NCBI GenBank assembly: GCA_020632445.1
Contig: JACKFN010000004.1
Coordinates: forward strand, 4,952-68,951
Direction of reading: 5' to 3'
Length of the DNA: 64,000 nucleotides
DNA from: Candidatus Nomurabacteria bacterium
GTDB taxonomy: Bacteria > Patescibacteriota > Patescibacteriia > Magasanikbacterales > UBA922
Positions 15,705 to 62,829 of the stretch are shown here, one piece after another; the first letter of the stretch is position 1, and each line of letters begins with the position of its first letter. The translations under genes were made by a program, and so were the position numbers. A model generated the notes under the pieces. The model was not told where the DNA came from. It worked only from the letters and a program-made list of their open reading frames with translations, and made no database searches.

Positions 15705-15705
15705 T

Positions 15706-16437: not shown

Positions 16438-16527
16438 GCCTGATTTTAGGTAAAGACATGGGATTCTTGACAAATTCGAGGCACCATGTCACTATATACC
16501 GTTATCTATCTAAACTTATGAAAGGGG

Positions 16528-16980: not shown

Positions 16981-17034
16981 TATTTACCGGAGAGACGGGC
17001 GCACACTGGTGCGCCTCACTTTCTTGTAAACCCT

Positions 17035-17442: not shown

Positions 17443-17538
17443 AAATAGATAAATTGAAAAATTGTTAAATGGTTACATTGAGGATCAATAAATAGCTATG
17501 CTATCATTTGTAATGGAATAGTGTAATCCTTTAGCAAT

Positions 17539-18486: not shown

Positions 18487-18496
18487 AAAAGATTGT

Positions 18497-19273: not shown

Positions 19274-19285
19274 TAGAGCAAAATT

Positions 19286-19684: not shown

Positions 19685-19722
19685 AGAAGACGGATAAATA
19701 GGACGTTTTAAATTGTTATACT

Positions 19723-20325
19723 ATGAAAAAATACCTCCTCATATTAGCTTTTGCTATAGGTGTGGCGCTTCCGTTTTCAGCTTCTGCTTTTGTTGATCTT
19801 GGAAAAGATCGCCTAACTGGTGGTGGAAGATCTGCAGGATATTCCGTAGATACTACCACAGAAACCACTTTTGCAGAGATTGTCGGTGAGGTTATCGCTG
19901 TCGCCCTTTCGCTCGTGGGTGCGATTTTTTTGGTTATTACGTTTTATGCAGGATTTCTGTGGATGACGGCACATGGAGACGAACAACAAGTCGACAAGTC
20001 AAAAAACATGATTCGTCAGTCTATGATTGGACTTGCGGTAGTACTGGGTGCTTACAGCATTACGAATTTTGTGGTTCCACGGCTCGTGGCAAAGACCACA
20101 GGTGGTGCTGCTTCTCAGGGCGGGGAACCTCTCAAACCGGGCGATACTCTTTGTTGTATAAAGACAGATGAAGGAACTGGAAACGAAGTATCACGACGCA
20201 TTGTGCAGGAAGTTTCGCAGTGTTATTCTAGTGGTTTTTTTGGAATTGGATCAGGTTGCTCTGATAATAATGTCGATGGTCATGAATGTCAGGCGATGGC
20301 AATGCCAGCAGAACAGTGTAAGTAA
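19723..20325 (+). CDS. T4SS-pilin-like protein with a short Cys-containing C-terminal extension
   Basis: FYAGFLWMTAHGDEQQVDKSKNMIRQSMIGLAVVLGAYSI. Confidence 0.55.
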   Translation: MKKYLLILAFAIGVALPFSASAFVDLGKDRLTGGGRSAGYSVDTTTETTFAEIVGEVIAVALSLVGAIFLVITFYAGFLWMTAHGDEQQVDKSKNMIRQSMIGLAVVLGAYSITNFVVPRLVAKTTGGAASQGGEPLKPGDTLCCIKTDEGTGNEVSRRIVQEVSQCYSSGFFGIGSGCSDNNVDGHECQAMAMPAEQCK

Positions 20326-20326
20326 T

Positions 20327-20938
20327 ATGAAAAAACTGAAGTACATTTTCATGGTTGCCATCTTTGGGATAAGCCTAGCACCGAGCGTGGCTTTTGCTGG
20401 AGTTGCCTCTGATCTCAACGCGCAACTTGGTGCAGGAGCCAAACGTGCTGAGTACGGAGAGGCGCAAGATCCAAGGAATTTGGTAGAAGAAGTGATTAAA
20501 GTCATCCTCGAGCTTACCGGGACTATATTTTTGGTGTTAATTATCATTGGTGGTTTTCATTTTTTTACCTCAGCGGGTGATGAAGAAAAAGCAACAAAGG
20601 GAAAGGCATATATTCGAAATTCCACCATTGGTCTTGCGGTGGTTTTGGCATCGTATAGCATTACGCTTTTTGTCGTTTCGCAGACACAGCAGGCGGTGAC
20701 TCCCGGGGGACCTGGTTCTGGTCCGCGAGATGTCGTTCCTCCAGGTACGGCTCCTGGCGAGATCGTTATGTGTTGTGATGTTGAATACCGTGGAATTCTT
20801 GTCGATGACTCAGAGACTTTTATTGTCCAGCAAGAAAGCGATTGTTACAGCCGATGTGATCGTCCAGGAGAAAATGGAGCCCCAACCACCTGTGTGGTTT
20901 CTCGTGTTACCAAAAATGAATGCGTAAATAGACACTAG
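20327..20938 (+). CDS. T4SS-pilin-like protein with a Cys-containing C-terminal extension
   Basis: The start was trimmed to MKKLKYIF right after the upstream stop. Core IIGGFHFFTSAGDEEKATKGKAYIRNSTIGLAVVLASYSI. Confidence 0.55.
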   Translation: MKKLKYIFMVAIFGISLAPSVAFAGVASDLNAQLGAGAKRAEYGEAQDPRNLVEEVIKVILELTGTIFLVLIIIGGFHFFTSAGDEEKATKGKAYIRNSTIGLAVVLASYSITLFVVSQTQQAVTPGGPGSGPRDVVPPGTAPGEIVMCCDVEYRGILVDDSETFIVQQESDCYSRCDRPGENGAPTTCVVSRVTKNECVNRH

Positions 20939-20945
20939 GGCCTTT

Positions 20946-21446
20946 ATGAAAGCACAAAAAAAACATAAATTCTACTTTGTACTTACACTTGTGATAATGG
21001 TAATTTTTTTGCTTCCCGAGGCTTCACATGCACTGAGCAGAGCCGTTGGCCAAACCAGTGCTGTTGCCGGCTCTCAAGGGGCAAATTTTGGTGAAGCTGC
21101 AGACCCACGCGTTGTCGTGGCAAAGGTTATCAAGAATATACTTGGGATCATGGGAATTGCTATGGTTGGTTTTTATGTCTATGCAGGCGTTCTTTGGACA
21201 TCTGCTGGCGGTAGCCAAGACCAGGTTGATAAAGCAAAAAAAATCATACGGTACAATGTTATCGGAACCATCATTATCTTTATGGCGTATAGCATTACGT
21301 ATTTTATATCTACTTCATTTTCTCGTGCGACAGTGGATAAACCTGAGGGGCAGTGGCAGATTGATATTGGCGAGGACCAAGATCGATTTGATAGGCCAAA
21401 TGTTTACCGGACACCAAGCAACGAAGCCTACTATAACACGAACTAA
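20946..21446 (+). CDS. T4SS-pilin-like protein
   Basis: VYAGVLWTSAGGSQDQVDKAKKIIRYNVIGTIIIFMAYSI. Confidence 0.55.
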   Translation: MKAQKKHKFYFVLTLVIMVIFLLPEASHALSRAVGQTSAVAGSQGANFGEAADPRVVVAKVIKNILGIMGIAMVGFYVYAGVLWTSAGGSQDQVDKAKKIIRYNVIGTIIIFMAYSITYFISTSFSRATVDKPEGQWQIDIGEDQDRFDRPNVYRTPSNEAYYNTN

Positions 21447-24390: not shown

Positions 24391-24465
24391 TGGTACCCCC
24401 GCTAGGAATCGAACCTAGAACCTCGGCTTAGAAGGCCAATGTTATATCCATTTAACTACAGGGGC
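24391..24465 (-). tRNA. tRNA-Arg (anticodon TCT), CCA encoded
   Basis: Reverse complement GCCCCTGTAGTTAAATGGATATAACATTGGCCTTCTAAGCCGAGGTTCTAGGTTCGATTCCTAGCGGGGGTACCA folds as a cloverleaf with anticodon loop CTTCTAA. Confidence 0.8.
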
Positions 24466-24607: not shown

Positions 24608-25558
24608 TCAAGGTGAGCCCTTCTTTCTGTGAAATTTTTTGTGAACTTTTTTGAGACCCTTATCTGTGATGTGAGTATATATCTGTGTGGTAGTAATAGA
24701 AGAATGACCAAGCATGGATTGCACGCTACGGATGTCAGCACCATTTCCTAGCAGATCAGTGGCAAAGGAGTGACGAAGTGTATGAGGGGTCACTGGTTTG
24801 GTGATACCGGCTGCTTTTGCCCATTTTTGAACAATGCGTTGCACGGAACGGGGCGTAAGGCTTCTTTCAGCGCTTCGATCGCTTGTGGTCCTTTTGTCGT
24901 GAGATACAAATAAACTTGAACAGATATCTTTGCGGGTACGCAAATACTTTTCTAAGGCACGCTTGGCATCCTCAGACAAAAAAGCAATGCGCCGTTTTCC
25001 ACCCTTTCCACTGACAGAAAATTCATCTCGCTTGAGGTTGATATCTTTTTTTTCAAGCTTTGCAAGTTCCGATACACGAAGGCCTGTACAAAAAAGCATT
25101 TCTAGTATGGCCTTGTCCCGAACGGGTATTAGTGGGTTCCCAACAGTTTTTTCCTTGAGGGGTGCTTCCAGAAGACGAAAGACCTCATCTTGCTCGAGGA
25201 AGGTTACCTCGCGATCTGGCATCTTCATCAGCTCGATTTTTTCTGGGGCAAGTGTTTTTACATCTCTTTTGGCCAGATACTTGAGAAAGGAGCGAAGGGC
25301 AATGAGGTGGTAGTTCTGTGTATTTTTTTTGAGTTCATCTCCGTGGACATCGATAAGACGGTTGAGCCACAAGCGGTATTTGCGAACATCTTCGCCGGTG
25401 ATGCTTTCGGGATTTTTGTCGCCAAACCATTCAATAAACCGCCTCAGGTAGAAATCATAATTTCGCAGTGTCTTCTGGCTGCGATTTTTTTCAATTTCAA
25501 GGTGTTCAAGAAATTGTACGAGATATTTTGAGAGTTTCATGTATATATTGTACGACAC
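24608..25558 (-). CDS. xerC: tyrosine site-specific recombinase, XerC/XerD family
   Basis: N-terminal SAM-like domain and a C-terminal catalytic domain with R…HTLRHSFATDLLGNGADIRSVQSMLGHSSITTTQIYTH. Confidence 0.85.
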   Translation of the reverse strand: MSYNIYMKLSKYLVQFLEHLEIEKNRSQKTLRNYDFYLRRFIEWFGDKNPESITGEDVRKYRLWLNRLIDVHGDELKKNTQNYHLIALRSFLKYLAKRDVKTLAPEKIELMKMPDREVTFLEQDEVFRLLEAPLKEKTVGNPLIPVRDKAILEMLFCTGLRVSELAKLEKKDINLKRDEFSVSGKGGKRRIAFLSEDAKRALEKYLRTRKDICSSLFVSHDKRTTSDRSAERSLTPRSVQRIVQKWAKAAGITKPVTPHTLRHSFATDLLGNGADIRSVQSMLGHSSITTTQIYTHITDKGLKKVHKKFHRKKGSP

Positions 25559-34785: not shown

Positions 34786-34814
34786 TTGACAAAATTTGCG
34801 TTATGTGATATACA
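34786..34814 (+). promoter_or_regulatory. sigma70-type promoter (TTGACA - 17 nt - TATACA, TGTG extended -10)
   Basis: ttgacaaaatttgcgttatgtgatataca followed by AGGAGG and an ATG at 34849. Confidence 0.5.
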
Positions 34815-34848
34815 GAGAAGTCCGAAAACTGCCAACGAAGGAGGTATC

Positions 34849-35637
34849 ATGGGAATCTCGGTCACGATCAATAAGGGGAAGCATTCCCATCCGATTCCGG
34901 ATGGGGCCAAGGAACTCCTCGAGGAGTTCTTCGGGAGCGCCGGACTCGAGGGTGAGATTACCGTCCAGCAGGGGGCGGCGGTCAAGGGCACTGCCCACCT
35001 GCAGGGCTTGACTAATGTCTCCATTAAGGGGATCAGTGGTCGGTACGTGATCGTCCGGGTTCAGCCCGGCAACAACACCACTGGTCGTGAGTACCAGGTG
35101 GTGACCCCCAATAACCTCTCGCCGCAACTTCTGTTTCGACTGCTCAAGTCCACAGCCCAAGAGCTCAAGGAAGGTGGCAGCAACGGGACAGTTGTCGGTT
35201 TCGATGATCTGCAGGACCAGGAATCGCAGATTCTGCGGCAGATTCAGGAGTGCGATGATGAACTCAATGCCCTGACCGAGAAGATCGGGCAGCTGAAGGA
35301 GTTTGTTGAAGCGGATCGCTTGCCTCTGAGTCGGCTCGAGCAGAAGATCGAGCAGGTCAGACAGCAGATCACGGCGCTGCAGGAGGCCTTGGAAGGTCAC
35401 CGACGCGAGCGCAATGGACTCGAGGAGAAGTTCTCCAAGTCCCAAAGTGATCTAGCAATCGCGCAGCATGACTACGAGGAGGCCGTGCAGAAGAGAGATG
35501 CCTTGCTGGAACGGCAACATGCTCTGCAGCAACTGCGGGCTGACAGGATAGTCGAGATCGTGCTCGATGCGGCGCATAACCAGAGTGTCGATCCGAATGT
35601 TGTTCACGCCCGACTCGGAGATCTGATTCGGGACTGA
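34849..35637 (+). CDS. high-GC (about 60%) hypothetical protein with a C-terminal coiled coil (foreign cassette)
   Basis: AGGAGGtatcATG start. A coiled-coil heptad region (residues about 130-240) spelled entirely in GC-rich codons. Confidence 0.55.
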   Translation: MGISVTINKGKHSHPIPDGAKELLEEFFGSAGLEGEITVQQGAAVKGTAHLQGLTNVSIKGISGRYVIVRVQPGNNTTGREYQVVTPNNLSPQLLFRLLKSTAQELKEGGSNGTVVGFDDLQDQESQILRQIQECDDELNALTEKIGQLKEFVEADRLPLSRLEQKIEQVRQQITALQEALEGHRRERNGLEEKFSKSQSDLAIAQHDYEEAVQKRDALLERQHALQQLRADRIVEIVLDAAHNQSVDPNVVHARLGDLIRD

Positions 35638-35691
35638 GCTTTTTCCCACAAATGACCCACCACTCGATTTCCCATCGCTCGAGAAATTCCC

Positions 35692-35718
35692 AAAAAACTC
35701 CTCTTTGAGGAGTTTTTT
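35692..35718 (+). terminator. rho-independent terminator
   Basis: aaaaaactcctctttgaggagtttttt. Confidence 0.6.
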
Positions 35719-35725
35719 GGTCGTC

Positions 35726-35754
35726 TTGACAAGTCAAAAGGAATGTGGTATTTT
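35726..35754 (+). promoter_or_regulatory. sigma70-type promoter (TTGACA - 17 nt - TATTTT, TGTG extended -10)
   Basis: ttgacaagtcaaaaggaatgtggtatttt. Confidence 0.4.
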
Positions 35755-35849
35755 CAAATGTCAAATTTTTGGCAACATACAGAGAAATTTTCTTTGTATA
35801 ATGCCCAAAAGGCAGAGACAATTTTTCTATCGGCAACAGAGGGAAAACA

Positions 35850-37109
35850 TTGGGAAGAGAGCATCGTACTGGTAAGCGTAGGGGAGGCGTTCGGCACGCA
35901 CATAAGGCGCGTGCTGTCGTGCGGGCGAACTGGAACAGTCAGGTCGCGGCGCTCAGGGCCGCATACAAGTCCGGCGAGGTCGTGACCGCCGGTGATCTTG
36001 CCAAGCGATGCCCGGGGGCGTTCGAAAACGCCTACAGGGCAGGCGAGTTCCTGGTTCGGGCTCGTCAGCATGGACTGGTGGTCCAGGATGGAAAGCGGGT
36101 GCGTCTTGTCGGCGACGATGCTGGGTCAATGACTCAGGCCGGTGACGAGGACATCGGCACAATCACCAGGATCGGTGACATGGACATCATGGTCCGCACC
36201 TTCTTCGAGAGCAGGACCCCCGCTACGGCGGTTCAGTCCTTTGACCACAGGAGTCTTCAGAAAGAGGGTGGTGTTCTCGGTGGGTACACCTGGGGCGCAC
36301 TCGGGATGTTGTGCCGAGTGCTCAGCGATCGACAGCTCATCGAGCATCCGGTGGTGGAAGGCTTCTTCGGGAGAGGAAGTCGATGGGTGCTCAGTGAGGC
36401 TGGTCTTACGCATCTTCGTGAGATTCAACCCGGTCTTCTTCCAGAGCCTGAGCCTGAGCAGCAGGAACACATGGCTTCAGCCACGGTTGAGCTGGAGGAG
36501 GTCGAGGCCGCGCCAAGCGTGCCGGAGCCAGAGTCTGTCGCCGAGCCGGAACCAACCGTCGAGGTCGACACTCGTCCGGAGCCCCTCAAGCCACGCAGCA
36601 TCGATATGCGTCGATTCCGCCATGATCGCATCGTGCGCGAGCGGGTGCGTCAGGGGCTCCAAGATGCACTCGATGCATCGGGTGGGCGAAGCTGGCTCAC
36701 GCTCGGCAGGGCAGAGATGCTCGGCTTGGGTGAGGCGCTTGCTGAGCTCGAGTTCCTCGGGTGGAACCTTGTACCTGCGGGGGTACGTTCCCGTGCCTTG
36801 GGCTACTTGGCAGAGGATGGTCATATCGTGCGTCAGCGCCGAAGTGGCGTCTACGTCTACAGCCTGAAGGGGTACGAGCCTACGGCTAAGGTCGCGGCCT
36901 CTGCTGTTCCCGACAGAGCACTCGAACCCATCAAGTCCACAGCGGTCAAGTCTGGTGCTGTGTGCAAGCCTAAGCGTACACGACCTGCTGCGACTCCTGC
37001 AGTCGCTCAGCAGCAGGCAACTGAGCCAGACCTCGCAACGATCCTCCTGAACCTGTTCAGCCTGATGGCGGAGATCCCCGACGATCGTCTTCAGGTTCAC
37101 ATCAGCTGA
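35850..37109 (+). CDS. high-GC (about 65%) hypothetical protein with two winged-helix-like modules joined by an acidic Pro/Glu linker (foreign cassette)
   Basis: The frame opens at a TTG after GGGAAA, so the true start is uncertain. EPEPEQQE…PEPESVAEPEPTVE linker. Overlapping alternative-frame ORFs 36142..36867 and 36477..37157 are GC artefacts. Confidence 0.45.
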   Translation: MGREHRTGKRRGGVRHAHKARAVVRANWNSQVAALRAAYKSGEVVTAGDLAKRCPGAFENAYRAGEFLVRARQHGLVVQDGKRVRLVGDDAGSMTQAGDEDIGTITRIGDMDIMVRTFFESRTPATAVQSFDHRSLQKEGGVLGGYTWGALGMLCRVLSDRQLIEHPVVEGFFGRGSRWVLSEAGLTHLREIQPGLLPEPEPEQQEHMASATVELEEVEAAPSVPEPESVAEPEPTVEVDTRPEPLKPRSIDMRRFRHDRIVRERVRQGLQDALDASGGRSWLTLGRAEMLGLGEALAELEFLGWNLVPAGVRSRALGYLAEDGHIVRQRRSGVYVYSLKGYEPTAKVAASAVPDRALEPIKSTAVKSGAVCKPKRTRPAATPAVAQQQATEPDLATILLNLFSLMAEIPDDRLQVHIS

Positions 37110-37240
37110 CTTACCGACACCCCACCTCCGGTCGCACACCCACACGACCAACCCCAAAAAAGCATCTGCAAAAGGTGTTTTTTTGTTTGCAAAAATATAC
37201 CTACTATGTTTAAATCATTTTGGAAACGAGAGGAGTGCAC

Positions 37241-41859: not shown

Positions 41860-41900
41860 AAAGGTCTTAGGCAAGGTAAAAAGCCTTGCCTAAGACCTTT
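41860..41900 (+). promoter_or_regulatory. perfect 17-bp stem / 7-nt loop hairpin in the 5' UTR of cassette 41916..42512 (operator or attenuator candidate)
   Basis: aaaggtcttaggcaagg taaaaag ccttgcctaagaccttt, ending 1 nt before the GAGAGGAG Shine-Dalgarno. Confidence 0.5.
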
Positions 41901-41915
41901 GAGAGGAGTGAGAAG

Positions 41916-42512
41916 GTGATAGAAAAGCTGTATACAGCTCGCCGTGTAGCCTTCCACGCGCGGAATGGCTTTACTCAGCGTCAACAAGAGATGCTCGTGC
42001 GGGATGGCTGTGAGCTCCACACGATCAAAGGCGGTCACCAGTTCGTGGTGATGCGCTACGACGTGGGTGAGTACACGGGTCTCCCAGTGTACGAGTTCAT
42101 GAAGGAAATGTCGGATCAAAAGGATGCTTTTTTTTCCGTTCACGTTTTGCCTGTAGAGCTTGATGGGTGGAACCAAGTGGCGGTCATCCCGGCGGGGAGT
42201 GACTACTATGCGTTTCATCTAACTACCATTCGATGGGTGCGGGGAACATACGTGTGCATCCATTTGGGCATCTGTGGAAAAAGTGGTGTGATCGTCCTCA
42301 ACTTGCATCAGCTCGAGCGAGTAGAGCAGATGCAGAAGGTAGAAGGGTTGTCTTTTGACGGGACGATCTATAGAGTTGCTACGCGACACATGCATTTTCC
42401 CGGATTCCGTGAGTTGTCCGAAGATCAACCGGACATGGGAGCCGCAGTGCTTGGATCGCTCAGTGATAGGATCGGTTCGGTACGCGCTCACGAACTGCTC
42501 GTCACTCGCTAA
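41916..42512 (+). CDS. high-GC (about 58%) hypothetical protein (foreign cassette)
   Basis: GTG start 7 nt after GAGAGGAG; no recognisable domain. Confidence 0.5.
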   Translation: MIEKLYTARRVAFHARNGFTQRQQEMLVRDGCELHTIKGGHQFVVMRYDVGEYTGLPVYEFMKEMSDQKDAFFSVHVLPVELDGWNQVAVIPAGSDYYAFHLTTIRWVRGTYVCIHLGICGKSGVIVLNLHQLERVEQMQKVEGLSFDGTIYRVATRHMHFPGFRELSEDQPDMGAAVLGSLSDRIGSVRAHELLVTR

Positions 42513-42686
42513 CAGAATCCCACCAAAAAAGGTAGTCAAAACCCTGCCACAAAGCTACCCTTCAAAAAAATTCCAAAAGTGTATATAATAGCGGTGTTAT
42601 TTGCTGATTGCATCAGAAAAACTGATGCAGCCAGGAAACCACACCAGCGACCGGGGGTCGCACTTGCGCCAGAGGAGGGCGCAACT

Positions 42687-50425: not shown

Positions 50426-50649
50426 ATTTTCCTAAAGTCATGCTATTTAGCAGGTACATTATAGTACATTTCTTCTTCTCTATCAAGGGATGATGCATCC
50501 TCCATGCGTTACTTGACACGATCGATCTTTTCTGGTACTATAGAGCCATCTTAAGTAACTAACCCGAAATAGGGACTTTGGCGATTGCCAAGGTTAAATC
50601 CATAAAATAGGTTGCCTTAAGAGCAATTTTTTTTGTGGAAAAGGTGATT

Positions 50650-51807
50650 ATGACAACGCAAAACAAAGACTTTGCAACACTCCTCAAGGAGTACACCGCA
50701 AAGCTTCCTCATGTAGGAGATCTCATTGAAGGTACTATTGTCGCTGTAGAAAATGGTGCTGTTCGAATTGATATTGATGGACTTGCCACTGGTGTGGTTC
50801 GTGGTCCAGAGCTTTTTGCAGAATCAAAGGAATTCTCAGGAATTAAGGTTGGTCAAAAAGTGCATGCCACAGTAATCGAACAGGAAAACGAAAACGGTGA
50901 GCTTGAGCTTTCTTTTCGTGCTGCTGGATACCAACGTGTCTGGGATGCCATGATTGAAGCACGTGACTCTGGTGTGACCATTGATGCCAAGATTGTTGCT
51001 GCTAACAAGGGAGGACTCATGATGCAGGTAGACGCACTTTCTGGGTTTATGCCAGTATCACAGCTTGCCCCAGATCATTACCCACGTGTTCCTGGTGGAG
51101 ATAAGAATCGTATCCTCGAAGAATTGAAACTTTTGGTAGGACAGACTTTGCAAGTAAAAGTGCTTGATGCTATCCAAAAAGATGAAAAGCTCATTGTTTC
51201 AGAGAAGGCTGTTTGGGAAGACCAACAAAAAGCCGTTCTCGATAAGTACGGAATCGGAGACACTATTGAAGGAGAAGTGAGTGCGCTTACTTCATTTGGT
51301 GCCTTTGTAAAGTTTGGAGTTGGTCTTGAAGGGCTCGTACATATTTCTGAGATTGCTTGGCAACGTATTGAGCATCCAAAGGACGTTCTCAAGGTTGGAG
51401 ACAAGGTACAGGCTCAGATTATTGACCTCAACAAATCAAAGATTTATCTTTCTATCAAGCGTCTTGTGGACGATCCATGGAAGCAGGTAAAGGATAAGTA
51501 CAAGGTCAATGATGTGGTAGAGGGTGAAATCCACAAAGTAGAACCATTTGGTGTTATGGTAAAGCTTGATGAGCAGATTCATGGTTTGGCTCATATTTCT
51601 GAGCTTTCTGATAAACCAATCAAAGATGTCAAAGATTTGGAAGAAAAGTTTACGATTGGTTCTACGCATAAGTTTGCTATTGTGAGTATTGAACCAGCAG
51701 AACACCGGCTTGGTCTTCGTCTTGATGGAGTAAAGCCAAAGGCTCCAAAGGAAGAAAGGACAGAAGAGCCAAAGGCAAAGGAAGAAACAGCTGAGGCTTC
51801 AGAGTAA
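50650..51807 (+). CDS. rpsA: 30S ribosomal protein S1 (short 4-domain form)
   Basis: Repeated S1 domains (GDLIEGTIVAV…, GDTIEGEVSAL…, NDVVEGEIHKV…). AGGTGA Shine-Dalgarno before the ATG. Confidence 0.85.
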   Translation: MTTQNKDFATLLKEYTAKLPHVGDLIEGTIVAVENGAVRIDIDGLATGVVRGPELFAESKEFSGIKVGQKVHATVIEQENENGELELSFRAAGYQRVWDAMIEARDSGVTIDAKIVAANKGGLMMQVDALSGFMPVSQLAPDHYPRVPGGDKNRILEELKLLVGQTLQVKVLDAIQKDEKLIVSEKAVWEDQQKAVLDKYGIGDTIEGEVSALTSFGAFVKFGVGLEGLVHISEIAWQRIEHPKDVLKVGDKVQAQIIDLNKSKIYLSIKRLVDDPWKQVKDKYKVNDVVEGEIHKVEPFGVMVKLDEQIHGLAHISELSDKPIKDVKDLEEKFTIGSTHKFAIVSIEPAEHRLGLRLDGVKPKAPKEERTEEPKAKEETAEASE

Positions 51808-51821
51808 AGGATTGAAGTAAC

Positions 51822-51853
51822 AAAAAAAGCTTCTCGAAAGAGAAGCTTTTTTG
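51822..51853 (+). terminator. rho-independent terminator of rpsA
   Basis: aaaaaaagcttctcgaaagagaagcttttttg. Confidence 0.65.
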
Positions 51854-51918
51854 TTATTTGGATTGACAAAAAGGGGGTAATCATGTAAAAAGGTGAGGCG
51901 TGGCACGAGGAGGTGAAA

Positions 51919-53151
51919 GTGGACGCGAAAATGTACTGGAGCCTGGACCCCGACAACTGGGGCATGCAGCAGAAGATCGGTTACGTCCCGGTCGATGATC
52001 CGGATGCGGCGATGGCTGAGATCATGGTGTGGAACGTCCCCTACATGCGGGGCAAGATCACCATGGACAACAAGGGTTACTTCTACATCTACATTCATAG
52101 TCGGCTCCGGTGGTTCCGTGTTGGGCATGGTATCTTCGTGCTCTACCGGATGATCTGCCACATGCTCGATACCCACGCGCGGGAGATGCCGACGATTAAG
52201 CAGATCAGAAAGGCCCTTGACGGTCTGGACGTGGACTTTCAGGTCCTCGAGCCGCCGCAGACCGACCGTTTCGGTCAAGGCACGTACATTCGTGGTGTAC
52301 TTAGTGCACATCTGAGTGAGCTCGCGCGAGCAGTTGACTGCGACAAGGTCGAGGCACGCAAGTTGATCGTGCACATGCTCGGCGTGCATGGACTCGGCGA
52401 GGGACAGGAACTCAAGACGGTCGTCCTCACTTGCTTGAGCGAAGACGCACGGGAGTCGCTTCTCGATCGGCTCAGCAGCATCAGCTCCATGCATCCGCAT
52501 CTGTGCTACTATCGTGCGCAGGTGCGCCAGATGATCCTGCTGCTTGAGGATCTTCTGGATCAGGGAGTCGCAGCCGCCCAGTCCCTGATCCGCTACCTTG
52601 ATCCCAGCGCCGGACAGCCCGCCAACATCTTGGAGACCAAGATCAACGCAGTCGGTCGTTGGGTTTCAATGATGCGGATCAAGCCCTACTCGCATATCCC
52701 GGGGTACGCTGTCAGTGAGCTCGAGGAGCTCAGGCAGTTGGCTCGTGTCACTGGGAAGCAGGAAGAAGCTCTCGCGCTTGCGCGTCGAATCCACTCGGGG
52801 CTGTTGATCATGAAGATGCGTCGCAGTCTTGCGCTCTCGGCGATGCACGTCGACCATGGCAACAAGGCACTGAAGACGAAGGATGTGCGAGCCTCCAGCA
52901 AGCCGATGCGCCAGTCGCTTCTCAGGCGGATCATCGCATCCTTGGAGAGTACCTCCAGACAGTGTGCTCAAATCGATGAGACCGGCTTCTCCAACCCAGT
53001 GTGCGACCAGATTCGTGCCAATTTGTTGCAGGTGCTTTCACACCTGAAGCAGATTCTGTCACTACTGGAAACTGACGGTGATAGGGAGGAGATGGGGAGT
53101 CATTTCTCCATCGCCGCGGCGCACCTCAAGAATACGGCTCAGCTCATCTAG
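51919..53151 (+). CDS. high-GC (about 60%) hypothetical protein, about 410 aa (foreign cassette)
   Basis: Promoter TTGACA (51863)-17-TAAAAA. GAGGAGG 5 nt before the GTG at 51919. C-rich tail cccacctctgc…caccccaccggccgcc. Confidence 0.5.
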   Translation: MDAKMYWSLDPDNWGMQQKIGYVPVDDPDAAMAEIMVWNVPYMRGKITMDNKGYFYIYIHSRLRWFRVGHGIFVLYRMICHMLDTHAREMPTIKQIRKALDGLDVDFQVLEPPQTDRFGQGTYIRGVLSAHLSELARAVDCDKVEARKLIVHMLGVHGLGEGQELKTVVLTCLSEDARESLLDRLSSISSMHPHLCYYRAQVRQMILLLEDLLDQGVAAAQSLIRYLDPSAGQPANILETKINAVGRWVSMMRIKPYSHIPGYAVSELEELRQLARVTGKQEEALALARRIHSGLLIMKMRRSLALSAMHVDHGNKALKTKDVRASSKPMRQSLLRRIIASLESTSRQCAQIDETGFSNPVCDQIRANLLQVLSHLKQILSLLETDGDREEMGSHFSIAAAHLKNTAQLI

Positions 53152-53359
53152 CAAGCATTTCAGTCGATCCCACCTCTGCACAGCGGTCACCCCACCGGCC
53201 GCCAGAAGATTCCCTTGACTTTTGTGAAAAAAAAGTGTAATGTATTGCAGAAGCTTTTTCGCTTTTTTTGTTTTAAAATAATGGAACAAAGAAAGCGACG
53301 AAGCTGCGAGCATGGGCTCAAAGCGGGGATCGCGCGACTCAATGGGGAGAAGAGAGAAG

Positions 53360-53590
53360 ATGGAAGCAACGAGCGAGGCTCAGGTGCACTTCGGTCTGGA
53401 TCGCAGCACGGGGCGTCAGGTGGCGGTCCAGGGCGCCACCGGTCGTCAGGCGCCCAAGCTCACCGACAAGATCCCGGGCACCGACAAGGCCTCGGGCATC
53501 GACAAGATCAACCCGGTCCAGAACCACGGCTTCGCGACCAGCCTCGGCGACCTGTTCGGCCCCCAGCTCAGGGGCGTTCACACCTCCTGA
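53360..53590 (+). CDS. small high-GC hypothetical protein, 76 aa, with internal repeats (TGRQVAVQGATGRQAPK / PGTDKASGIDKINP)
   Basis: Promoter TTGACT (53215)-17-TAATGT. Purine-rich Shine-Dalgarno GGGGAGAAGAGAGAAG before the ATG. C-rich tail gcacccgccaccaccc. Confidence 0.35.
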   Translation: MEATSEAQVHFGLDRSTGRQVAVQGATGRQAPKLTDKIPGTDKASGIDKINPVQNHGFATSLGDLFGPQLRGVHTS

Positions 53591-53774
53591 TCCTGGCTGG
53601 ACTCGTTCCAGCACCCGCCACCACCCATGAGCGCAGCGCTCGTCTCGCCAACCAGGCCTGCACCACCGCGGGCCTGTCACATACATCTATAGAAGCATAC
53701 AAACATTTGAACATATAAACATGGTGCCGATAGGGCATTTTTTGTTTTTCAAAAAAGATTTTCTGTGTTATGCT

Positions 53775-54569
53775 ATGGGTAATGTAATTATACTCTCTAT
53801 GGCAACAAGACATTGGAAAGAATATCTTACTCGACTCGGTTTTTCGGACAATGAAGCCTCGTTATATCTTACTTCTCTCAAAGAGGGGCAGCTTTCTGTC
53901 CAAGAGCTTTCACGCAAGACCAAGCTCTCTCGTGTGACTGTGTATGCGGTTTTGGAATCACTGATGAAGCGAGGGTTAATTTCTACCGTCCAAAAAGGAA
54001 AAAAGAATTACTATGCAGCAGAACCACCAGAAAGATTGTTTACGGTGGCAAGTCAAGAAATTGGAAAACTTGAAGTCATGGTTGAGGAGATGAAACAAAA
54101 TGTCTCAGAACTTCGAGCGATTCAAAGTGGTGATAAACCAGTGGTAAAAATGTTTGAGGGAGAGGAAGCCATGCTTATCTTTCAAGAAAAGCTTTTGAGC
54201 GCACCGGTCAAAGAATTCTATGAGTTTGGAAATATCGATGCCATACGAAATGCACCGATTCTTGGTGAAGTAGCATCGGATTTTTTTGAAAGAATGGATA
54301 AAAAGAAAATTGTTCGTTATGGCATGTTTTCTTCAAAGGAAAAAGACCCTATTAGTAAAAGTGATTTTGAAAAGGTAAAGAAACTGGAAAACATTGATGA
54401 ATATTCGGGAAATGTTTCGGTGTTTGGAGACGAAGTCATTATTTCTGGTATGAGTGGAAAGTTTATTTCTGTATATATTCAAAACAAAGAAATTGCCGAC
54501 ACCGTAAGAGCTCTACTACGAAAGCTTTGGAAGGAAACTCCAGAGAAAGAGATTAAAAAAACACCTTAA
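53775..54569 (+). CDS. TrmB-family transcriptional regulator
   Basis: N-terminal wHTH LSVQELSRKTKLSRVTVYAVLESLMKRGLIS and a C-terminal TrmB-like sensor region. Confidence 0.6.
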   Translation: MGNVIILSMATRHWKEYLTRLGFSDNEASLYLTSLKEGQLSVQELSRKTKLSRVTVYAVLESLMKRGLISTVQKGKKNYYAAEPPERLFTVASQEIGKLEVMVEEMKQNVSELRAIQSGDKPVVKMFEGEEAMLIFQEKLLSAPVKEFYEFGNIDAIRNAPILGEVASDFFERMDKKKIVRYGMFSSKEKDPISKSDFEKVKKLENIDEYSGNVSVFGDEVIISGMSGKFISVYIQNKEIADTVRALLRKLWKETPEKEIKKTP

Positions 54570-54600
54570 GGGAGTTTCATTAGCAAAAGAATTTTTTTCA

Positions 54601-54624
54601 GGGGCCATGGACATGGCCCCTTTT
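54601..54624 (+). terminator. rho-independent terminator
   Basis: ggggccatggacatggcccctttt. Confidence 0.6.
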
Positions 54625-55130
54625 AGGTGGGGCGGTGGTCGTTTGGCGTTAGGGCTTGGGCGGCCCTCGCGCCTGGTATTGGATGTTCAGGGTCGTCTCC
54701 TCATTCGAGCGTCAGGGACGCCCGACAAGTTGCGCGCGAGAATTCGATCTCACGCGCCTTGTTGTCGTTAGCGGCCGGAGCCCATGGGAACCTCCAGGTG
54801 TGCTGCTCGGGGCAGCTCCCGGTGGGTCATGCCTCCCTGTCTTTTCGGTTTCCTTCACCACTGTTTTTGATCTGCAGGTCTGTCTTGCACAAACAGACTC
54901 TTCCGTGGCAGGAGATGCCAGGGTTACCACAGATCGTGGACTTGGGTTCAGGAATAGTGTCCTCAGTTGTTCAAAGCGGCTTGGAGCAGCCTCGTGTATG
55001 AGGACTCTTACCTTAGGAAGGCCTCAGGCTAGGTGCCGACTTGATTTTTCGGCTTCCTTGCCTAGCTTGACCCAATTGTCGTGCCGAGACTATCACGGGC
55101 CTGCTCGATGGCAGTCTTGGGCACGCAAGT
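54625..55130 (+). other. GC-rich (about 60%) non-coding block; no convincing ORF in any frame
   Basis: Stops interrupt all six frames. The composition matches the foreign cassettes. It could be a structured RNA or a decayed cassette. Confidence 0.3.
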
Positions 55131-55612
55131 GTGTGTTGGCCCGTAACAGGAGTAATATATCACAAAATACAATATTTGTCAAGTGCTACTATACACAATG
55201 CGGGCATGTGCATTCATAGAGAAAAAAAGTGCTTTTTTCGAAACATAGCTCATGTGAGAAGTCCATTATGTATAGAACTCCTTATCATTTTAGTTGTGTA
55301 AATTTAGGTAAAAAAATAAGTTATCCACAAAAAATGAATAACTACTCTTGACAAGCAAATAAATACATGATAAAACAATAAGGTAGTCAAAAAAGTAAAT
55401 TGATTCTTTACAAACAATCACCACGAACCCAAGGGGGTTTTAGCTAGGCTCCTTTGGCATATAGCGTTTCGTGGTGGTTGGGTTATATGTCAAAGAGTCG
55501 AGCAAAGTCCCTCTAAATAAGGGGCTTTTTGCTTTGCCTGATTTCGCATCAGGAAGTTCCCAATGTTTTGAAAGTTTTAAGATATCGGGAACCATCACCA
55601 TGGAGGGACACA

Positions 55613-55714
55613 GTGAAGTACGAGCTGAGCGTCATCATGACGCCGGTCGTGTTTACGCTGGTGCACCTGGCGCTCATCGCCGGGTTCTGCGCCAGTCTGA
55701 CCGGCCGCATCTGA
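55613..55714 (+). CDS. possible small hydrophobic peptide (33 aa, single TM), high GC
   Basis: GGAGGG 5 nt before the GTG. Product VKYELSVIMTPVVFTLVHLALIAGFCASLTGRI. An overlapping Arg-rich frame exists, so this is speculative. Confidence 0.2.
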   Translation: MKYELSVIMTPVVFTLVHLALIAGFCASLTGRI

Positions 55715-55739
55715 TCGAGACACCCCCCGTCCGATAACC

Positions 55740-56140
55740 AACCTTCAATAATACTGGGTCAACCAGTCTCCTCTTGCATATAATTGCAGCTACTGGCGTT
55801 GCTTCCAGCAGGAAGCGACCCGGGTGCTCGAGGTGTGACCGCCGCTGTCCAACCTTTGTTCAGGCTCCCGCCATTGCCTGAACCATTCCCCAATGCCTCT
55901 TAATTGAGAAGTATTGGGGAGTAACTTCTAGGAGAATGCTTCCCGCCCGATCGGGCTACCCATTGAGATGGTCCCTAGGTTCAAAATTCCTTGCCTCGGC
56001 AAGACTACCTCCTAGGCCTGACGCATAAGCAGCGTGAATGGTAGTGCGCTGCGCCCACCCTGGCTCGATTCCCCATCGAGCCCCTTGATTGCCTCTTTCT
56101 GTTTTCAGGAAGTGGCTCAAAGGAATAATTTTTCATAACA
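55740..56140 (+). other. GC-rich non-coding region dense in nested hairpins (candidate structured RNA)
   Basis: TGTTCAGGC…GCCTGAACA, CCCCAAT…ATTGGGG, GCCCGATCGGGC, TTGCCTCGGCAAG, GGCTCGAT…ATCGAGCC. Confidence 0.3.
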
Positions 56141-56143
56141 CCC

Positions 56144-56193
56144 ATGCTTGTCACGTTTTCTCTTCACTCTGGGCCCTATGGCTCAGCGATGAA
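56144..56193 (+). repeat. repeat R1 (50 bp), a copy of the leader/start region of the cassette at 57124
   Basis: atgcttgtcacgttttctcttcactctgggccctatggctcagcgatgaa matches 57079-57128 with 3 mismatches. Here the ATG is followed by an early stop (atgaatag). Confidence 0.7.
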
Positions 56194-56296
56194 TAGAAAA
56201 TGGTATGTTTTTACTTCCTAAAATGATTGGGGAGTTAGTTGGAGATCTCTCAGTGTGCCAAATATGACATAGTGAGGGATTAACCAAGGAGCTCCC

Positions 56297-56977
56297 ATGA
56301 ACGAGTATGAGCGAGTCATTCAGGCCGGTGCGGTGGCGACGATCGTCGACTCTCACGAGTCTGACGGCGTCAATGACGTCGTGGTGCGAGTGGCCAATGG
56401 TCATGGGAGCGTGCTGTTGCTCATGTTGCTCAGCGGCACCGGTGTGGTGTGCACACAGCGCATTATAGCCGATGAGCTGGCGCACCAGCGTGAGCGGATC
56501 CTCAGTCGTGGGATCCACGCTGGCAATGCCAGTGTGAGGATCATCGACCTGGCAGAGTTTCGTCGGCGCTTCCCATCAAAGCCGTGTACGGTGCGGGAAG
56601 GGATCGAGGCTCACAGGCATCGCCTGTACGAGTATGCCGATCTGCGGCGCGAGCGGGGTGGCTCGGACTGGCGAGGTGAGATGCCGCTGACGGTCGACCC
56701 TGCGGTCAAAGAGCTGCTCGCTGAAAACCCGTATCTCACGGGAATAATCGTGAGAGGGGTTTACGCCAAGCGCGGTGGTGCCGGGTATTCGGTGCGACTT
56801 GGCTTCGGCAAGGCGGTCAAGTTCTGGGAGGAACATTCGAGTTCGTGTTCGGGGTTGCCTGTCAGCGTGAGTGTTGAACTCGTCGATGATGAGCCTCACC
56901 CGAGCTGGATCTTGTCGCCTGCGCAGGCTAACGTGTTGCGTTGGTACCTTGCGGTGACAGACGAGTGTTGCTCCTGA
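56297..56977 (+). CDS. high-GC (about 62%) hypothetical protein, 226 aa (cassette J)
   Basis: GGAG Shine-Dalgarno and an ATG at 56297. Its N-terminal motif AGAVATIVDSHESDGVNDVVVRVANG resembles the C-terminus of cassette K. Confidence 0.5.
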   Translation: MNEYERVIQAGAVATIVDSHESDGVNDVVVRVANGHGSVLLLMLLSGTGVVCTQRIIADELAHQRERILSRGIHAGNASVRIIDLAEFRRRFPSKPCTVREGIEAHRHRLYEYADLRRERGGSDWRGEMPLTVDPAVKELLAENPYLTGIIVRGVYAKRGGAGYSVRLGFGKAVKFWEEHSSSCSGLPVSVSVELVDDEPHPSWILSPAQANVLRWYLAVTDECCS

Positions 56978-57010
56978 CGCAGTTACTCTGCCTACCAAAT
57001 ACGCCTACCT

Positions 57011-57037
57011 CAATCACCACATTCAAACAAAGTTTTT
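57011..57037 (+). repeat. trailer repeat T1 after cassette J
   Basis: caatcaccacattcaaacaaagttttt; a copy lies at 57517-57543 after cassette K. Confidence 0.65.
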
Positions 57038-57078
57038 GTCGTGACAAATATTTTGTTGGACTTGTTTCACCAGCATCT

Positions 57079-57128
57079 ATGCTTGTCACGTTTTCTTTTC
57101 ACTCTGGGCCCTGTGGCTCAGCGATGAA
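57079..57128 (+). repeat. repeat R2 (leader plus start codon of cassette K)
   Basis: See R1. Confidence 0.7.
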
Positions 57129-57507
57129 CGGAAAACGGAAAATTGCGATGGTTATCATTCGTTTTGTTCGAGGGTCTGAGACTCGTGACATGGCCGTGGA
57201 CTTGGTAACCCGTGATGAGGCACGGGAGATTCTGGTCACCGGCCACAAGGCTGGCTTTGACTGGAAGATCGAGTATCGGCTAGCGAGCGAGATTGAGGCA
57301 CACCTGTGGATGGCCGCAGATTTTACCGCGCGGATCCTTCGTGCTCTGATGCGTGGGCTCCCTGTGAGGTTTGACGGCGTAACCTGGTTTCGGCTCGATC
57401 AGGCGGGCGAGATCGAAGACGTGATCGTCAATTCTGGTGCCGTCGTCACCATCGAATCAGACGATGATAATGGCTTGGTTATTATCAGAGCAGGACAGAT
57501 CCACTGA
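57124..57507 (+). CDS. GC-elevated hypothetical protein, 127 aa (cassette K)
   Basis: The ATG lies inside repeat R2. Its C-terminus SGAVVTIESDDDNGLVIIRAGQ resembles J's N-terminal motif. Confidence 0.45.
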   Translation: MNGKRKIAMVIIRFVRGSETRDMAVDLVTRDEAREILVTGHKAGFDWKIEYRLASEIEAHLWMAADFTARILRALMRGLPVRFDGVTWFRLDQAGEIEDVIVNSGAVVTIESDDDNGLVIIRAGQIH

Positions 57508-57516
57508 TCCCACCTC

Positions 57517-57543
57517 CAATCACCACACTCAAACAAAGTTTTT
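57517..57543 (+). repeat. trailer repeat T2 after cassette K
   Basis: caatcaccacactcaaacaaagttttt. Confidence 0.65.
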
Positions 57544-57751
57544 AAAGCGTGAAGTTGAAGATTTTGTTTGAAGGTTATAAGTATGTTTTTCACCAAAAAA
57601 GAACTCAAAAATTTGGATCAGGAGCAGCTCTACGAAGTTCGTGAAGCCTACTTGACACATATGAAAAATCCACAGGCATCAAAGTTTCAGTTTTTGCAGC
57701 GCAAACCAGTTCTTGCTGACATGTCGCTTGTTGATGATATGATTTTGCAGT

Positions 57752-58072
57752 ATGCTGCATAAGGTAGCTACGCAAACCGTGGTGAATAAAATTCTCAAGC
57801 AAGATAGAAATTCATATTTTTTTGCTCTCATGCTCTGGAAAATGCTCAAATCATTTGAAGCAGATGAGGGCATATGTGAAAAAAATCATCATTATATTTC
57901 TAAACTCCTGAAAGACCATAATTTGGACCTTGCGGATGGTCAAGACACAAATTTAAAAATCAGCGCTGCAGAGAGTCTTTGGTTAATAATGGCACTACGC
58001 AAGGTGGAGTTTATTGGTGAAAGGGATTTTACTGCCTATTTTGTCTATATAGAAGAGCTTTTTGGGAAGTAG
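57752..58072 (+). CDS. hypothetical protein (native composition)
   Basis: ORF only. Confidence 0.3.
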   Translation: MLHKVATQTVVNKILKQDRNSYFFALMLWKMLKSFEADEGICEKNHHYISKLLKDHNLDLADGQDTNLKISAAESLWLIMALRKVEFIGERDFTAYFVYIEELFGK

Positions 58073-58215
58073 GTGGAAGAAAGGAAAATTTTTTTCTCTA
58101 TTTTTACAAAAAAACGACCGAAAATAGTTTGCATCAATAGCTTGACACAGGGCTATTTTTTGTATATACTGAGCCTACTTATTTGTATGAAATATTTGGT
58201 TAAATTACTGTTTTT

Positions 58216-60120
58216 ATGAAGAATCTTTTGAAAAATTTTGGGATCGTCTTTCTCTTTTTGATTGTCGTTGCTGCTCTTTTGAGCACCTCGGCAGGGGAGC
58301 AAAGCAAGCCTGAGCAAGGTAGCCTCAACCAGGTTGTTCAGCTTATCAATGAGGAAAAAGTAGAAAAAATTGAATCAAAGGGACAGACCCTCTTGCTCAC
58401 ACTAAAGCCAGAAGAAGAGGGAGGGGAAGCAAAGCAAATTGAGGTTAAGAAAGAACCAGGTCAAAGCTTCACGGAAATTGCCAGCAACCTAGGAGTAGAC
58501 AAGGAGAAACTTTCGAAGTTTGAATATGAAGTCACCGAGGAATCGGGTGCACGTTTTTGGATACTGAGCATTTTGCCATATATTTTCCCCGTGCTTTTGA
58601 TTATCGGACTTATCTATTTCATGAGTCGCCAGGTGCAAGGAGTGAATAACAAGGCCATGGGATTTGGTCAGTCTGGTGCCAAGCAGGCAAAACAAGATGA
58701 CAACAACAAAAAAACCTTCAAGGATGTCGCTGGATGCGCTGAAGCAAAAGAAGAATTGAATGAAGTGGTTGATTTTCTCAAAGACCCAAAAAAGTTTGCT
58801 GATGTTGGGGCAAAGATTCCAAAGGGTGTACTGCTTATGGGTGCTCCCGGAATTGGTAAGACGCTCTTGGCACGCGCTGTTGCCGGAGAAGCGGGTGTAC
58901 CGTTTTTCCACATTTCTGGATCTGAGTTTGTTGAAATGTTCGTAGGAGTAGGAGCAAGCCGTGTACGTGATTTGTTTAACAAAGCAAAAAAAGCTGCGCC
59001 AGCTATTATCTTTATTGATGAAATTGACGCTGTAGGACGAAAGCGTGGTGCCGGACTTGGTGGGTCACATGATGAACGTGAACAAACGTTAAACCAAATT
59101 TTGGTAGAGATGGATGGATTTGATCCACATATTGGGGTGATTGTGATTGGTGCTACCAACCGCCCAGACGTTTTGGATCAAGCACTTTTGCGTCCAGGAC
59201 GTTTTGATAGACGTATTGTGATCGATAAGCCGGATATCAAGGATCGTGAGGCAATACTCAAAGTTCATGCAAAAGGAAAGCCAATTGCAAAATCTGTTTC
59301 GATGCGTGACATCGCAGAGCGAACACCAGGGTTTACCGGTGCTGATCTTGATAACCTGCTGAATGAAGCAGCTATCATGAGTGTGAGAAAGTCCATGAAA
59401 GAAATCGATCAAGATTTGATTCGCGAAGCTATTGAAAAGGTGTTACTGGGTCCAGAAAAGCGTAGTCGTGTGATGAGTGACAAGGACAGAGAAATGACTG
59501 CATATCACGAAGCTGGACACGCGATTGTTGGACACTTTCTCAAGAACTGTGATCCTGTTCGCAAGGTGTCGATTATTGGTCGTGGAATGGCTGGAGGGTA
59601 TACGCTTTCGATGCCAACAGAAGATCTCAATTACAAAACTCTCGCACAGTTCAAAGATGAAATGGCTATGGCGATGGGAGGATATGTGGCTGAGCGTATG
59701 ATTTATGGTGATGACAACCTTTCAACAGGACCTTCATCCGACCTCAAAAAAGTGACTCAGCTCGCGACCGCTATGGTGAAGCAATATGGTATGAGTGACA
59801 AGGTTGGACCACGTACGTATGGTGACAATGAAGAGACCATTTTCTTGGCGCAGGAAATTCATGACAAGAAAAACTATAGTGAAAAGGTTGCGGAGATGAT
59901 TGATGAGGAAATCAATCGCGTTATTGCCGATGCCAAAGAAAAAGCAAAAGAGGTATTGCACGATAAGAAAGCGCAGATGGAGGATCTGGTAAAAGTTCTT
60001 CTCAAAAAAGAAACCGTAGAACATGAGGACTTTGTGGCTGTGATGGAAGGAAAGTTTGATATGGCAAGCCTGGATAGGGAAAAGGAAGTCCCAAAGCCAA
60101 ACAAAAGTGAGAAGAAGTAG
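58216..60120 (+). CDS. ftsH: ATP-dependent zinc metalloprotease FtsH
   Basis: Two N-terminal TM helices, AAA+ ([18 protein letters not shown]), SRH, HEAGHA zinc site. Confidence 0.95.
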
Positions 60121-62067: not shown

Positions 62068-62829
62068 ATGAAAACACTTATCAAAAAGCTCGAAGAGCTT
62101 GACTTTTCCGATAAAGAAGCAAGAGTTTATTTGGCTCTTTTAGAATTAGGTTATGCGAGCCCTGCCCAAATAGCTACAAAGGCTGGGATTAAAAGAACCA
62201 CTGTCTACAATGTCCTTCCAGAACTTCTTAAAAGAGGATTTATATCTAAAACGTTCGTCAAAGGAAAAAAGGTATTTTGGGTTGAAGATGTGAGAAAACT
62301 CAAGTTTGTTATTGACGAAAGACAGCAGAAGTTTGAACATCTTTTTCCACAGCTTGAAGCTTTACATAGCGTGCTTCCATCTAAGCCAAAGTTTCGTTAT
62401 TACGAAGGAGAAAATGGAATGAAGCAACTTCATATGTATGCTTTGGAAAAAACTATACCTGGAGATACTATTTATGAATATCTTGGGACCGTGGATTTTA
62501 AAAGGCTTTTTCCTGAGGAGTTTTATGATTTTTATCCAAAAGAAAGAACCAGAAGAAAAATTTCTGCACGTATAATAGCTCCTGACATTCCTGAGACCAG
62601 GGATATTGTGCAAAAAGACAAAAGGACGTTGCGTGAAACACGCCTTGCACCGAGAGATCAGCTTTTGTTTTCTGGTGATATGCAATTGTATCGGAATCAT
62701 GTAGCACTTATTTCTTATAAAGAAAACTTCATGGGAGTTGTTATTGAGAGTAAGGAAATTTATGAAATGCAAAAATGTGTTTTTGAGCTTTTATGGAACA
62801 CGCTTGCAGGTCCAACAGCAACACCCTAA
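62068..62829 (+). CDS. TrmB-family transcriptional regulator (second copy)
   Basis: N-terminal wHTH EARVYLALLELGYASPAQIATKAGIKRTTVYNVLPELLKRGFIS. Confidence 0.6.
   Translation: MKTLIKKLEELDFSDKEARVYLALLELGYASPAQIATKAGIKRTTVYNVLPELLKRGFISKTFVKGKKVFWVEDVRKLKFVIDERQQKFEHLFPQLEALHSVLPSKPKFRYYEGENGMKQLHMYALEKTIPGDTIYEYLGTVDFKRLFPEEFYDFYPKERTRRKISARIIAPDIPETRDIVQKDKRTLRETRLAPRDQLLFSGDMQLYRNHVALISYKENFMGVVIESKEIYEMQKCVFELLWNTLAGPTATP

Follow-up and report, generated by a model that had tools for sequence, protein, structure and literature searches.

The locus described here raises the question of why two genes without detectable similarity to each other are preceded and followed by almost the same sequences, and what those sequences do. 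It lies in a metagenome-assembled genome of Candidatus Nomurabacteria, a member of the candidate phyla radiation (CPR, or Patescibacteria), within a window of 64 kb, by which the whole stretch of DNA analyzed is meant. A leader sequence, R, and a trailer sequence, T, occur twice each, before and after the genes J (locus tag H6758_03125; 226 aa, 56297-56977, plus strand) and K (H6758_03130; 127 aa as annotated, 57124-57507, plus strand). The original prediction, made from the letters of the sequence, took this arrangement for the footprint of cassette replacement behind a conserved leader, as in integron-like arrays, shufflons or polymorphic toxin/immunity islands. The answer favored here, which on the basis of sequence comparison is judged about equally likely to be right or wrong, is that R and T are leader and trailer structures of messenger RNA which also provide portable homology for the gain and loss of orphan genes.

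R occupies 56139-56203 and 57074-57138 (65 nt, 89% identity), with a 50-nt core at 56144-56193 and 57079-57128 that is 96% identical, and T lies at 57011-57037 and 57517-57543, where 26 of 27 positions match. Alignment, dinucleotide shuffling (two matches to the R or T pattern occurred in 0 of 100 shuffles) and a blastn comparison of the whole window with itself placed both repeats where they had been predicted, and the self-comparison found no other intergenic direct repeat in the 64 kb; a profile search detected no weaker copies in the window. At the profile level both exceed the lengths first reported, R reaching about 85 nt (56120-56203 and 57056-57138) and T about 70 nt (56994-57062 and 57501-57574). 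The palindrome described between the cassettes exists as two 8-nt arms, CGTGACAA (57040-47) and TTGTCACG (57083-90), but it is missing from the equivalent junction of another genome (L001) and was rejected as a functional element, being probably incidental. A search for further copies of R and T had been proposed as a check, and short R sequences searched in genome, metagenome and viral contigs found no genuine further copy of R: the 12 matches to the R 18-mer in genome contigs were all chance or unrelated coding sequence, an R 21-mer had no match in metagenome contigs, and in viral contigs the search with R returned one chance match and those with the J profile, the K profile and a 24-mer of the region preceding the first R (termed U) returned nothing. 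Likewise, nothing was retrieved from plasmid and phage collections by blastn of 55400-57600 or from plasmids by tblastn of K.

The element was compared among three carrier genomes, that of the window and those represented by contigs L016 (691 nt) and L001 (2.2 kb). In the window the order is U-R-J-T-R-K-T followed by a 59-aa gene. L016 reads U-R-K'-T, with no J between U and the K homolog K', and L001 reads T-R-J'-T followed by the 59-aa gene, a 101-aa gene and ftsH, with no K between the J homolog J' and the 59-aa gene and with another unit upstream, beyond the contig end. The modular behavior proposed for the cassettes is borne out in that K' and J' each have their own R and T and gene content differs among the genomes, whereas the proposed membership in integrons, shufflons or toxin/immunity islands is not. 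Fixed synteny of J and K in relatives, together with uniqueness of R and T to this spot, was what the original prediction had named as evidence against itself; the synteny is not seen, although the uniqueness does hold within the window. In the three genomes the units always have one orientation and are in register with stop and start codons. Within the window R1 and R2 are 91.7% identical, more than R2 and the R of L016 (80.6%), the copies linked to K and K', and the two T copies of L001 have stem variants in common. The greater likeness of R and T within a genome indicates, as far as sequence can tell, either exchange between copies in that genome or recent acquisition. A crossover between R copies or between T copies, or the reverse reaction, the insertion of a circle, could have given the arrangements seen in L001 and L016.

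When all junctions are aligned, T and R form one intergenic module of about 150 nt that extends from each stop codon to the next start region. It begins with a C/A-rich tract (CAATCACCAC in the window), continues with the long A/U-rich hairpin of T and a spacer ending in an invariant 18-mer, ATGCTTGTCACGTTTTCT, and closes with the 18-bp hairpin of R, whose 3' arm holds an ATG and a purine run. On the plus strand, the R1 leader module spans 56118-56203 (18-mer at 56144-56161, hairpin at 56156-56200 with the ATG at 56189-91) and the R2 leader module 57053-57138 (18-mer at 57079-57096, hairpin at 57091-57135 with the ATG at 57124). The T1 trailer module spans 56978-57062, with the tract containing CAATCACCAC followed by the A/U-rich hairpin at 57022-57061, and the T2 trailer module spans 57508-57574, with an ACCTCC/CAATCACCAC tract and a hairpin at 57528-57572. 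The 10-mer that opens T1 and T2 has a third and only other exact copy in the window, at the opening of a separate hairpin at 55415-55480.

Pairing is conserved in both structures. The 18-bp R hairpin is paired in 98.6% of cells, with one compensatory change (G:C to C:G) and four one-sided changes that keep pairing, and the T hairpin, of 11-20 bp, is paired in 91% of cells (11 bp scored) with three compensatory pairs, its stem differing in sequence between genomes while pairing is kept. Sliding the register of either structure lowers pairing to 36-58%. Covariation among these 4-5 sequences can suggest such conservation but does not prove it. Both hairpins contain G-U pairs and fold better on the plus strand (z-scores of -3.4 vs -1.7 on the minus strand for T1-R2, and -4.5 vs -3.3 in L001); therefore, a role in mRNA is favored over one in duplex DNA or in the bottom DNA strand. 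In Rfam, the window at gathering thresholds yielded just two tRNAs, and 54500-57700 at E<=10 gave nothing relevant.

R, which is 76-85% identical between genomes, is not coding, because it carries a 2-nt indel, U carries a 1-nt indel, and the reading frames from the first R ATG end after 12, 13 or 25 codons. In R1 this first ATG (56144) opens a frame of 25 codons. Attenuation through translation of a leader peptide (MLVTFSLH...) was considered and rejected, as neither ATG of R has a Shine-Dalgarno sequence, the peptide varies in length and what is conserved is the nucleotide sequence. The original prediction saw in R1 a decayed copy of the K leader whose ATG runs into an immediate stop (atgaatag). 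This was a frame error, since the sequence reads ATG-AAT-AGA and continues for 10 codons to a TAA at 56219-21, and decay is contradicted by an R of the same form lying 20 nt upstream of the J homolog in L001.

Directly upstream of R1, on the plus strand, lies U (55738-56143, about 400 nt), a GC-rich non-coding structured region whose last 175 nt or so form four hairpins. The fold z-score of 55716-56200 is -7.5 on the plus strand and -3.2 on the minus strand. Between the window and L016, U and R are about 85-90% identical, with 1- and 2-nt indels. Substitutions in U are rarer in paired columns (4 of 82, none of them breaking a pair) than in unpaired ones (22 of 88; p=2e-4). These non-coding sequences are under strong constraint, because their identity exceeds the 73% of the K coding sequence, where synonymous divergence (dS) is 0.91; they are conserved above synonymous sites. 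On this evidence U could represent a new structured RNA or else a long leader. Rfam contains no match to it, and an origin from tRNA or tmRNA was discarded after ARAGORN reported nothing at default or 90% thresholds and noise alone at 80%.

J and K are present as open reading frames (ORFs) at the positions originally given, J with its own AAGGAG Shine-Dalgarno sequence. For K, the ATG at 57148 (119 aa) is the likelier start, since the homolog K' and an SD-like GGAA/GGAG both point to it. K and its one homolog K' (P0004, from L016) have 68% amino acid identity and a ratio of nonsynonymous to synonymous divergence (dN/dS) of 0.24; their nucleotides are 73% identical, with 57% identity at third positions and 24, 22 and 51 differences at the first, second and third codon positions. 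J also has one homolog, J' (P0002, from L001), at 34% identity, and a profile of J and J' searched against 1.84 billion cluster representatives found nothing beyond the two. With this dN/dS for K and a homolog for J, both look like real genes. Neither received an assignment in Pfam, PHROGs, PADLOC or NCBIfam. The AlphaFold (AF2) model of K has a mean confidence (pLDDT) of 71 and no significant match in the PDB, and that of J (pLDDT 41) was too poor for use. A motif of J echoed in K had been taken as a sign of domain swapping, but the resemblance is not significant: BLASTP gave E ~1, and the profile-profile alignment that had been proposed as a check (hhalign) covered 11 columns at a probability of 0.6%, detecting no similarity. 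The GC content at third codon positions (GC3) is 0.70 in J and 0.61 in K, and across J, K and their homologs in AT-rich relatives it is 0.60-0.74, vs 0.27-0.47 for native genes, in all three genomes. Judged by similarity and composition, J and K are independent, compositionally foreign orphan genes.

In the favored reading, R would be a 5' leader in which the single-stranded invariant 18-mer is followed by the 18-bp hairpin, which would end just before the ribosome-binding region and bury the AUG, and T would be a 3' trailer in which the C/A-rich tract and then the long A/U-rich hairpin come right after the stop codon. In a co-transcribed array without promoters, R and T would probably stabilize or process the transcript and control its translation. 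In a promoter scan, T1-R2 gave no sigma-70-like site, although near-consensus promoters were present at other points of the locus; the cassettes are probably co-transcribed. The T+R unit of about 150 nt that recurs between genes would at the same time constitute portable homology: recombination between R copies or between T copies would delete a gene unit, the reverse via a circle would insert one, and such deletions and insertions would yield the differing arrangements of the three genomes. A function at the RNA level, co-transcription, and homologous recombination as the mechanism of shuffling are what we infer from these comparisons.

Several points weigh against this interpretation. The covariation comes from 4-5 sequences and the observed score of R was reached by 122 of 500 column shuffles. 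The element occurs in only three genomes, two of which are represented by short contigs (2.2 kb and 0.7 kb). The distance from R1 to J is 103 nt, vs 5-25 nt between K, K' and J' and their R. T lacks a U-tract and is thus not a canonical terminator. Upstream, a promoter candidate at the end of U (56102-29) matches at 9 of 12 positions and is not conserved in L016, and a candidate pair picked by eye, TTGACA-17-TAAAAC at 55349-77, failed the scan criteria and is followed by a terminator. Higher similarity of R within a genome could reflect recent acquisition alone, and homologous and site-specific recombination are inseparable on these data. In all, the evidence is thin, as it comes from three genomes with two copies in each.

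The alternative that survives best, although unlikely, is that R and T are shared cis-regulatory elements only, acting as operators or in stability or processing, and that gene content differs through ordinary indels unrelated to the repeats. It accounts for the same structural evidence, and no recombination intermediate has been observed. However, the L016 and L001 arrangements match the outcome of an R1-R2 or T1-T2 crossover, with a single intact R or T and no scar, and R copies within one genome are more alike than those linked to K and K'. Among known systems, the intercistronic RNase III or stabilizer hairpins of polycistronic mRNAs, such as those of the phage T7 early region, also come close to R and T. 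Like them, R and T are long sense-strand intergenic hairpins between cistrons that would be suited to processing and to protection of 3' and 5' ends; they differ in a sequence conserved well beyond structural need, notably in the invariant 18-mer.

The closest described precedent, by analogy, for the combination of expression control and shuffling is found in the promoter-early stem-loops (PeSLs) of the hyperplastic regions of T4-type phages, mobile stop-to-start regulatory repeats that mediate the shuffling of orphan genes (Arbiol et al., 2010; PMC2839356). In both cases repeated intergenic modules that run from stop to start and contain a stable stem-loop flank orphan genes in a hypervariable region between core genes, and in both repeat recombination would explain insertions, deletions and replacements between close relatives. 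PeSLs carry a strong sigma-70 promoter inside the repeat, whereas the R/T module has no sigma-70 consensus promoter, only the 9/12 match at the end of U being present. Each R/T unit comprises two long hairpins plus the invariant 18-mer, it is found in 2 copies vs about 50 of the PeSL, and it resides in a bacterial (CPR) chromosome instead of a phage. Mini-circles are a PeSL feature, while R and T are known from sequence alone.

An integron-like origin comes next and has a low probability. In this scheme the T+R junction would be an attC-like site served by a recombinase located elsewhere, U would serve as the platform (attI, promoter and leader), and J and K would have been captured as cassettes lacking promoters. 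Chromosomal integrons have cassette arrays, and clusters of attC sites without integrase are known as CALINs (Cury et al., 2016; PMC4889954). The locus shares with these systems small cassettes of no known function in one orientation, junctions in which no promoter-like site was detected, a structured repeat at every junction that is more alike within than between genomes, as is reported for the attC sites of chromosomal integrons (PMC4889954), a cassette content that varies by genome and an array that starts at a conserved non-coding platform. Against this scheme, no recombinase was found in about 30 kb upstream of the array or in about 6 kb of the window downstream, the ORFs scanned in the surrounding island and between 29 and 64 kb containing no recombinase domain. 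The only tyrosine recombinase among the ORFs scanned in the window (24608-25558, minus strand) stands beside a tRNA-Arg gene (24391-24465), 31 kb from the array, and is of Xer type, scoring 242-252 bits with XerD/XerC/XerA models and 153 with the integron-integrase model, whose cutoff is 265. Nor do the junctions resemble attC, since a regular-expression search for inverse R''(RYYYAAC)/R'(GTTRRRY) cores 40-140 nt apart found none in the 7 junction units on either strand, and each unit folds as two local hairpins, not as one site-wide imperfect palindrome with extrahelical bases. The G-U pairs point to RNA instead of a folded DNA strand, and the conserved leader is 60-85 nt long, not a core of 6-7 nt. 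A classical integron was rejected on the absence of IntI by the array and of attC cores and on the two local hairpins.

The other two systems invoked by the original prediction fared no better. R and T are direct repeats and no invertase was found, contrary to what a shufflon would have, and a polymorphic toxin/immunity island is at odds with a non-coding R and with J and K having no toxin or immunity domain in Pfam, NCBIfam, PADLOC or PHROG. A bolder proposal, given a still smaller chance than an integron-like origin, is that the R/T junctions and the conserved structured U represent a chromosomal gene-capture platform of CPR bacteria not described before. Such a platform would resemble an integron but use neither IntI nor attC, and orphan cassettes, GC-rich and without promoters, would enter behind a large structured RNA through a recombinase that is unlinked or unconventional, or through a mechanism that depends on RNA.

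That R and T are pieces of a selfish dispersed repeat of the kind of miniature inverted-repeat transposable elements (MITEs), repetitive extragenic palindromes (REPs) or Correia elements, inserted intergenically and independent of the genes, is very improbable. The module is hairpin-rich, about 150 nt long and intergenic, as such elements are, but its copies are confined to the array within the 64 kb and no other was detected by blastn or nhmmer in 52 related metagenome loci; the constant orientation of the unit and its alignment to stop and start codons across the three genomes, its lack of terminal inverted repeats and the absence of a visible target-site duplication do not suit a dispersed repeat either. 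Least probable of all is an ancient tandem duplication of a gene with its flanks, after which J and K became unrecognizable as relatives and R and T stayed similar through selection or gene conversion: a same-orientation tandem layout and a weak common beta-hairpin-like motif (GAVATI / GAVVTI) speak for it, and against it stand the lack of significant similarity between J (226 aa) and K (119-127 aa) by BLASTP or profile-profile comparison, the occurrence of each gene without the other beside a conserved flank in another genome, and the clear relation of J' to J only and of K' to K only.

The array, with its proposed mRNA structures and portable homology, is part of a lineage-specific island of 6.4 kb (51808-58215) located between rpsA (50635-51807; ribosomal protein S1, identified by a Pfam S1 match) and ftsH (58216-60120). 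The island contains GC-rich orphan ORFs, candidate structured RNAs, an AT-rich TrmB-like helix-turn-helix (HTH) gene and the R/T array. In relatives (41 loci compared), rpsA stands directly upstream of ftsH with a gap that is usually 30-660 nt and at most 4.2 kb, vs 6.4 kb in the window, and none of the island sequence is present in the gap of these 41 relatives. R, T, U, J and K were absent from all 52 related metagenome loci fetched via the N-terminus of FtsH, as assessed by blastn and an nhmmer profile. Because the gap is short in relatives and the intervening sequence is absent there, the island is taken to be lineage-specific and to occupy a recurrent hotspot, with the array at the ftsH end of the island. 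The GC content of the genome averages about 43%, with several patches at 55-65%. Two independent run assemblies, L002 and L003, match 52501-58940 and 53945-59099 of the window, respectively, at 100% identity across the AT/GC junctions, which shows that this AT-rich/GC-rich mosaic did not arise as an assembly chimera.

Downstream of the last T, on the plus strand, the array is flanked by AT-rich genes of 59 and 106 aa (57583-58072), both also following the last T in L001, where the 59-aa gene is 58% identical; a database search with the 59-aa gene returned solely the gene itself. Its start, ATGTTTTTCACC (57583-57594), matches the start of R, ATGCTTGTCACG (56144-56155), at 9 of 12 positions and in L001 at just 6 of 12, a resemblance that may have arisen by chance or may be left over from a junction core.

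Other candidate RNAs and a small ORF lie upstream of U. On the minus strand, a 555-nt GC-rich stretch (54596-55150) folds with z=-6.4 (z=-2.2 on the plus strand), and just upstream of it is a near-consensus minus-strand promoter (55182 to 55154, TTGACA-17-TATATT with TG). Gene callers place a 178-aa ORF on the opposite, plus strand (54683-55219), which has flat GC1/GC2/GC3 values and no family match. The minus-strand stretch matches nothing in Rfam and is a candidate for a large non-coding RNA. On the plus strand, the pair TTGACA-17-TAAAAC noted by eye, the hairpin at 55415-55480 and a terminator-like stem-loop at 55504-55528 succeed one another within 55349-55535, an arrangement that could give rise to a small RNA about 150 nt long. 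Between this segment and U, a 33-codon plus-strand ORF (55615-55716) with a GGAGG Shine-Dalgarno sequence encodes a hydrophobic peptide resembling a single helix, VKYELSVIMTPVVFTLVHLALIAGFCASLTGRI, which by its sequence is a possible small membrane protein or toxin-like peptide. The same rpsA-ftsH gap of the closest metagenome-derived relative (L018) contains, at 9433-9800, a promoter (TTGACA-17-TACTAT), about 320 nt at 60-70% GC and a terminator-like hairpin; this segment has no Rfam match and no similarity to U, and it folds with modest z-scores of -3.5 and -3.0 on the two strands.

Elsewhere in the window, two TrmB-like HTH regulators are encoded, one inside the island (53721-54569), AT-rich like native genes, and one downstream of ftsH (62068-62829), positionally equivalent to a TrmB-like gene in L018. 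Further GC-rich patches (4700-5900, 34800-37200, 41900-42600 and 51913-53700) reach 55-65% GC and a GC3 of up to 0.88 among AT-rich core genes, and their ORFs have no Pfam match and no flanking repeats like R or T. A C-terminal T4SS_pilin domain occurs in about a dozen consecutive genes at 11339-21446, in which two neighbors (12434-12615 and 13252-13433) are 73% identical in nucleotide sequence.

CPR bacteria have very small genomes and the route by which they gain new genes is poorly understood, and the locus studied here is a hotspot between two of their core genes. If R and T do combine expression control with portable homology, two new conserved RNA structures would be added, together with a candidate large structured RNA in U, and the "regulatory cassette" route of T4-type phages would extend to a bacterial chromosome.

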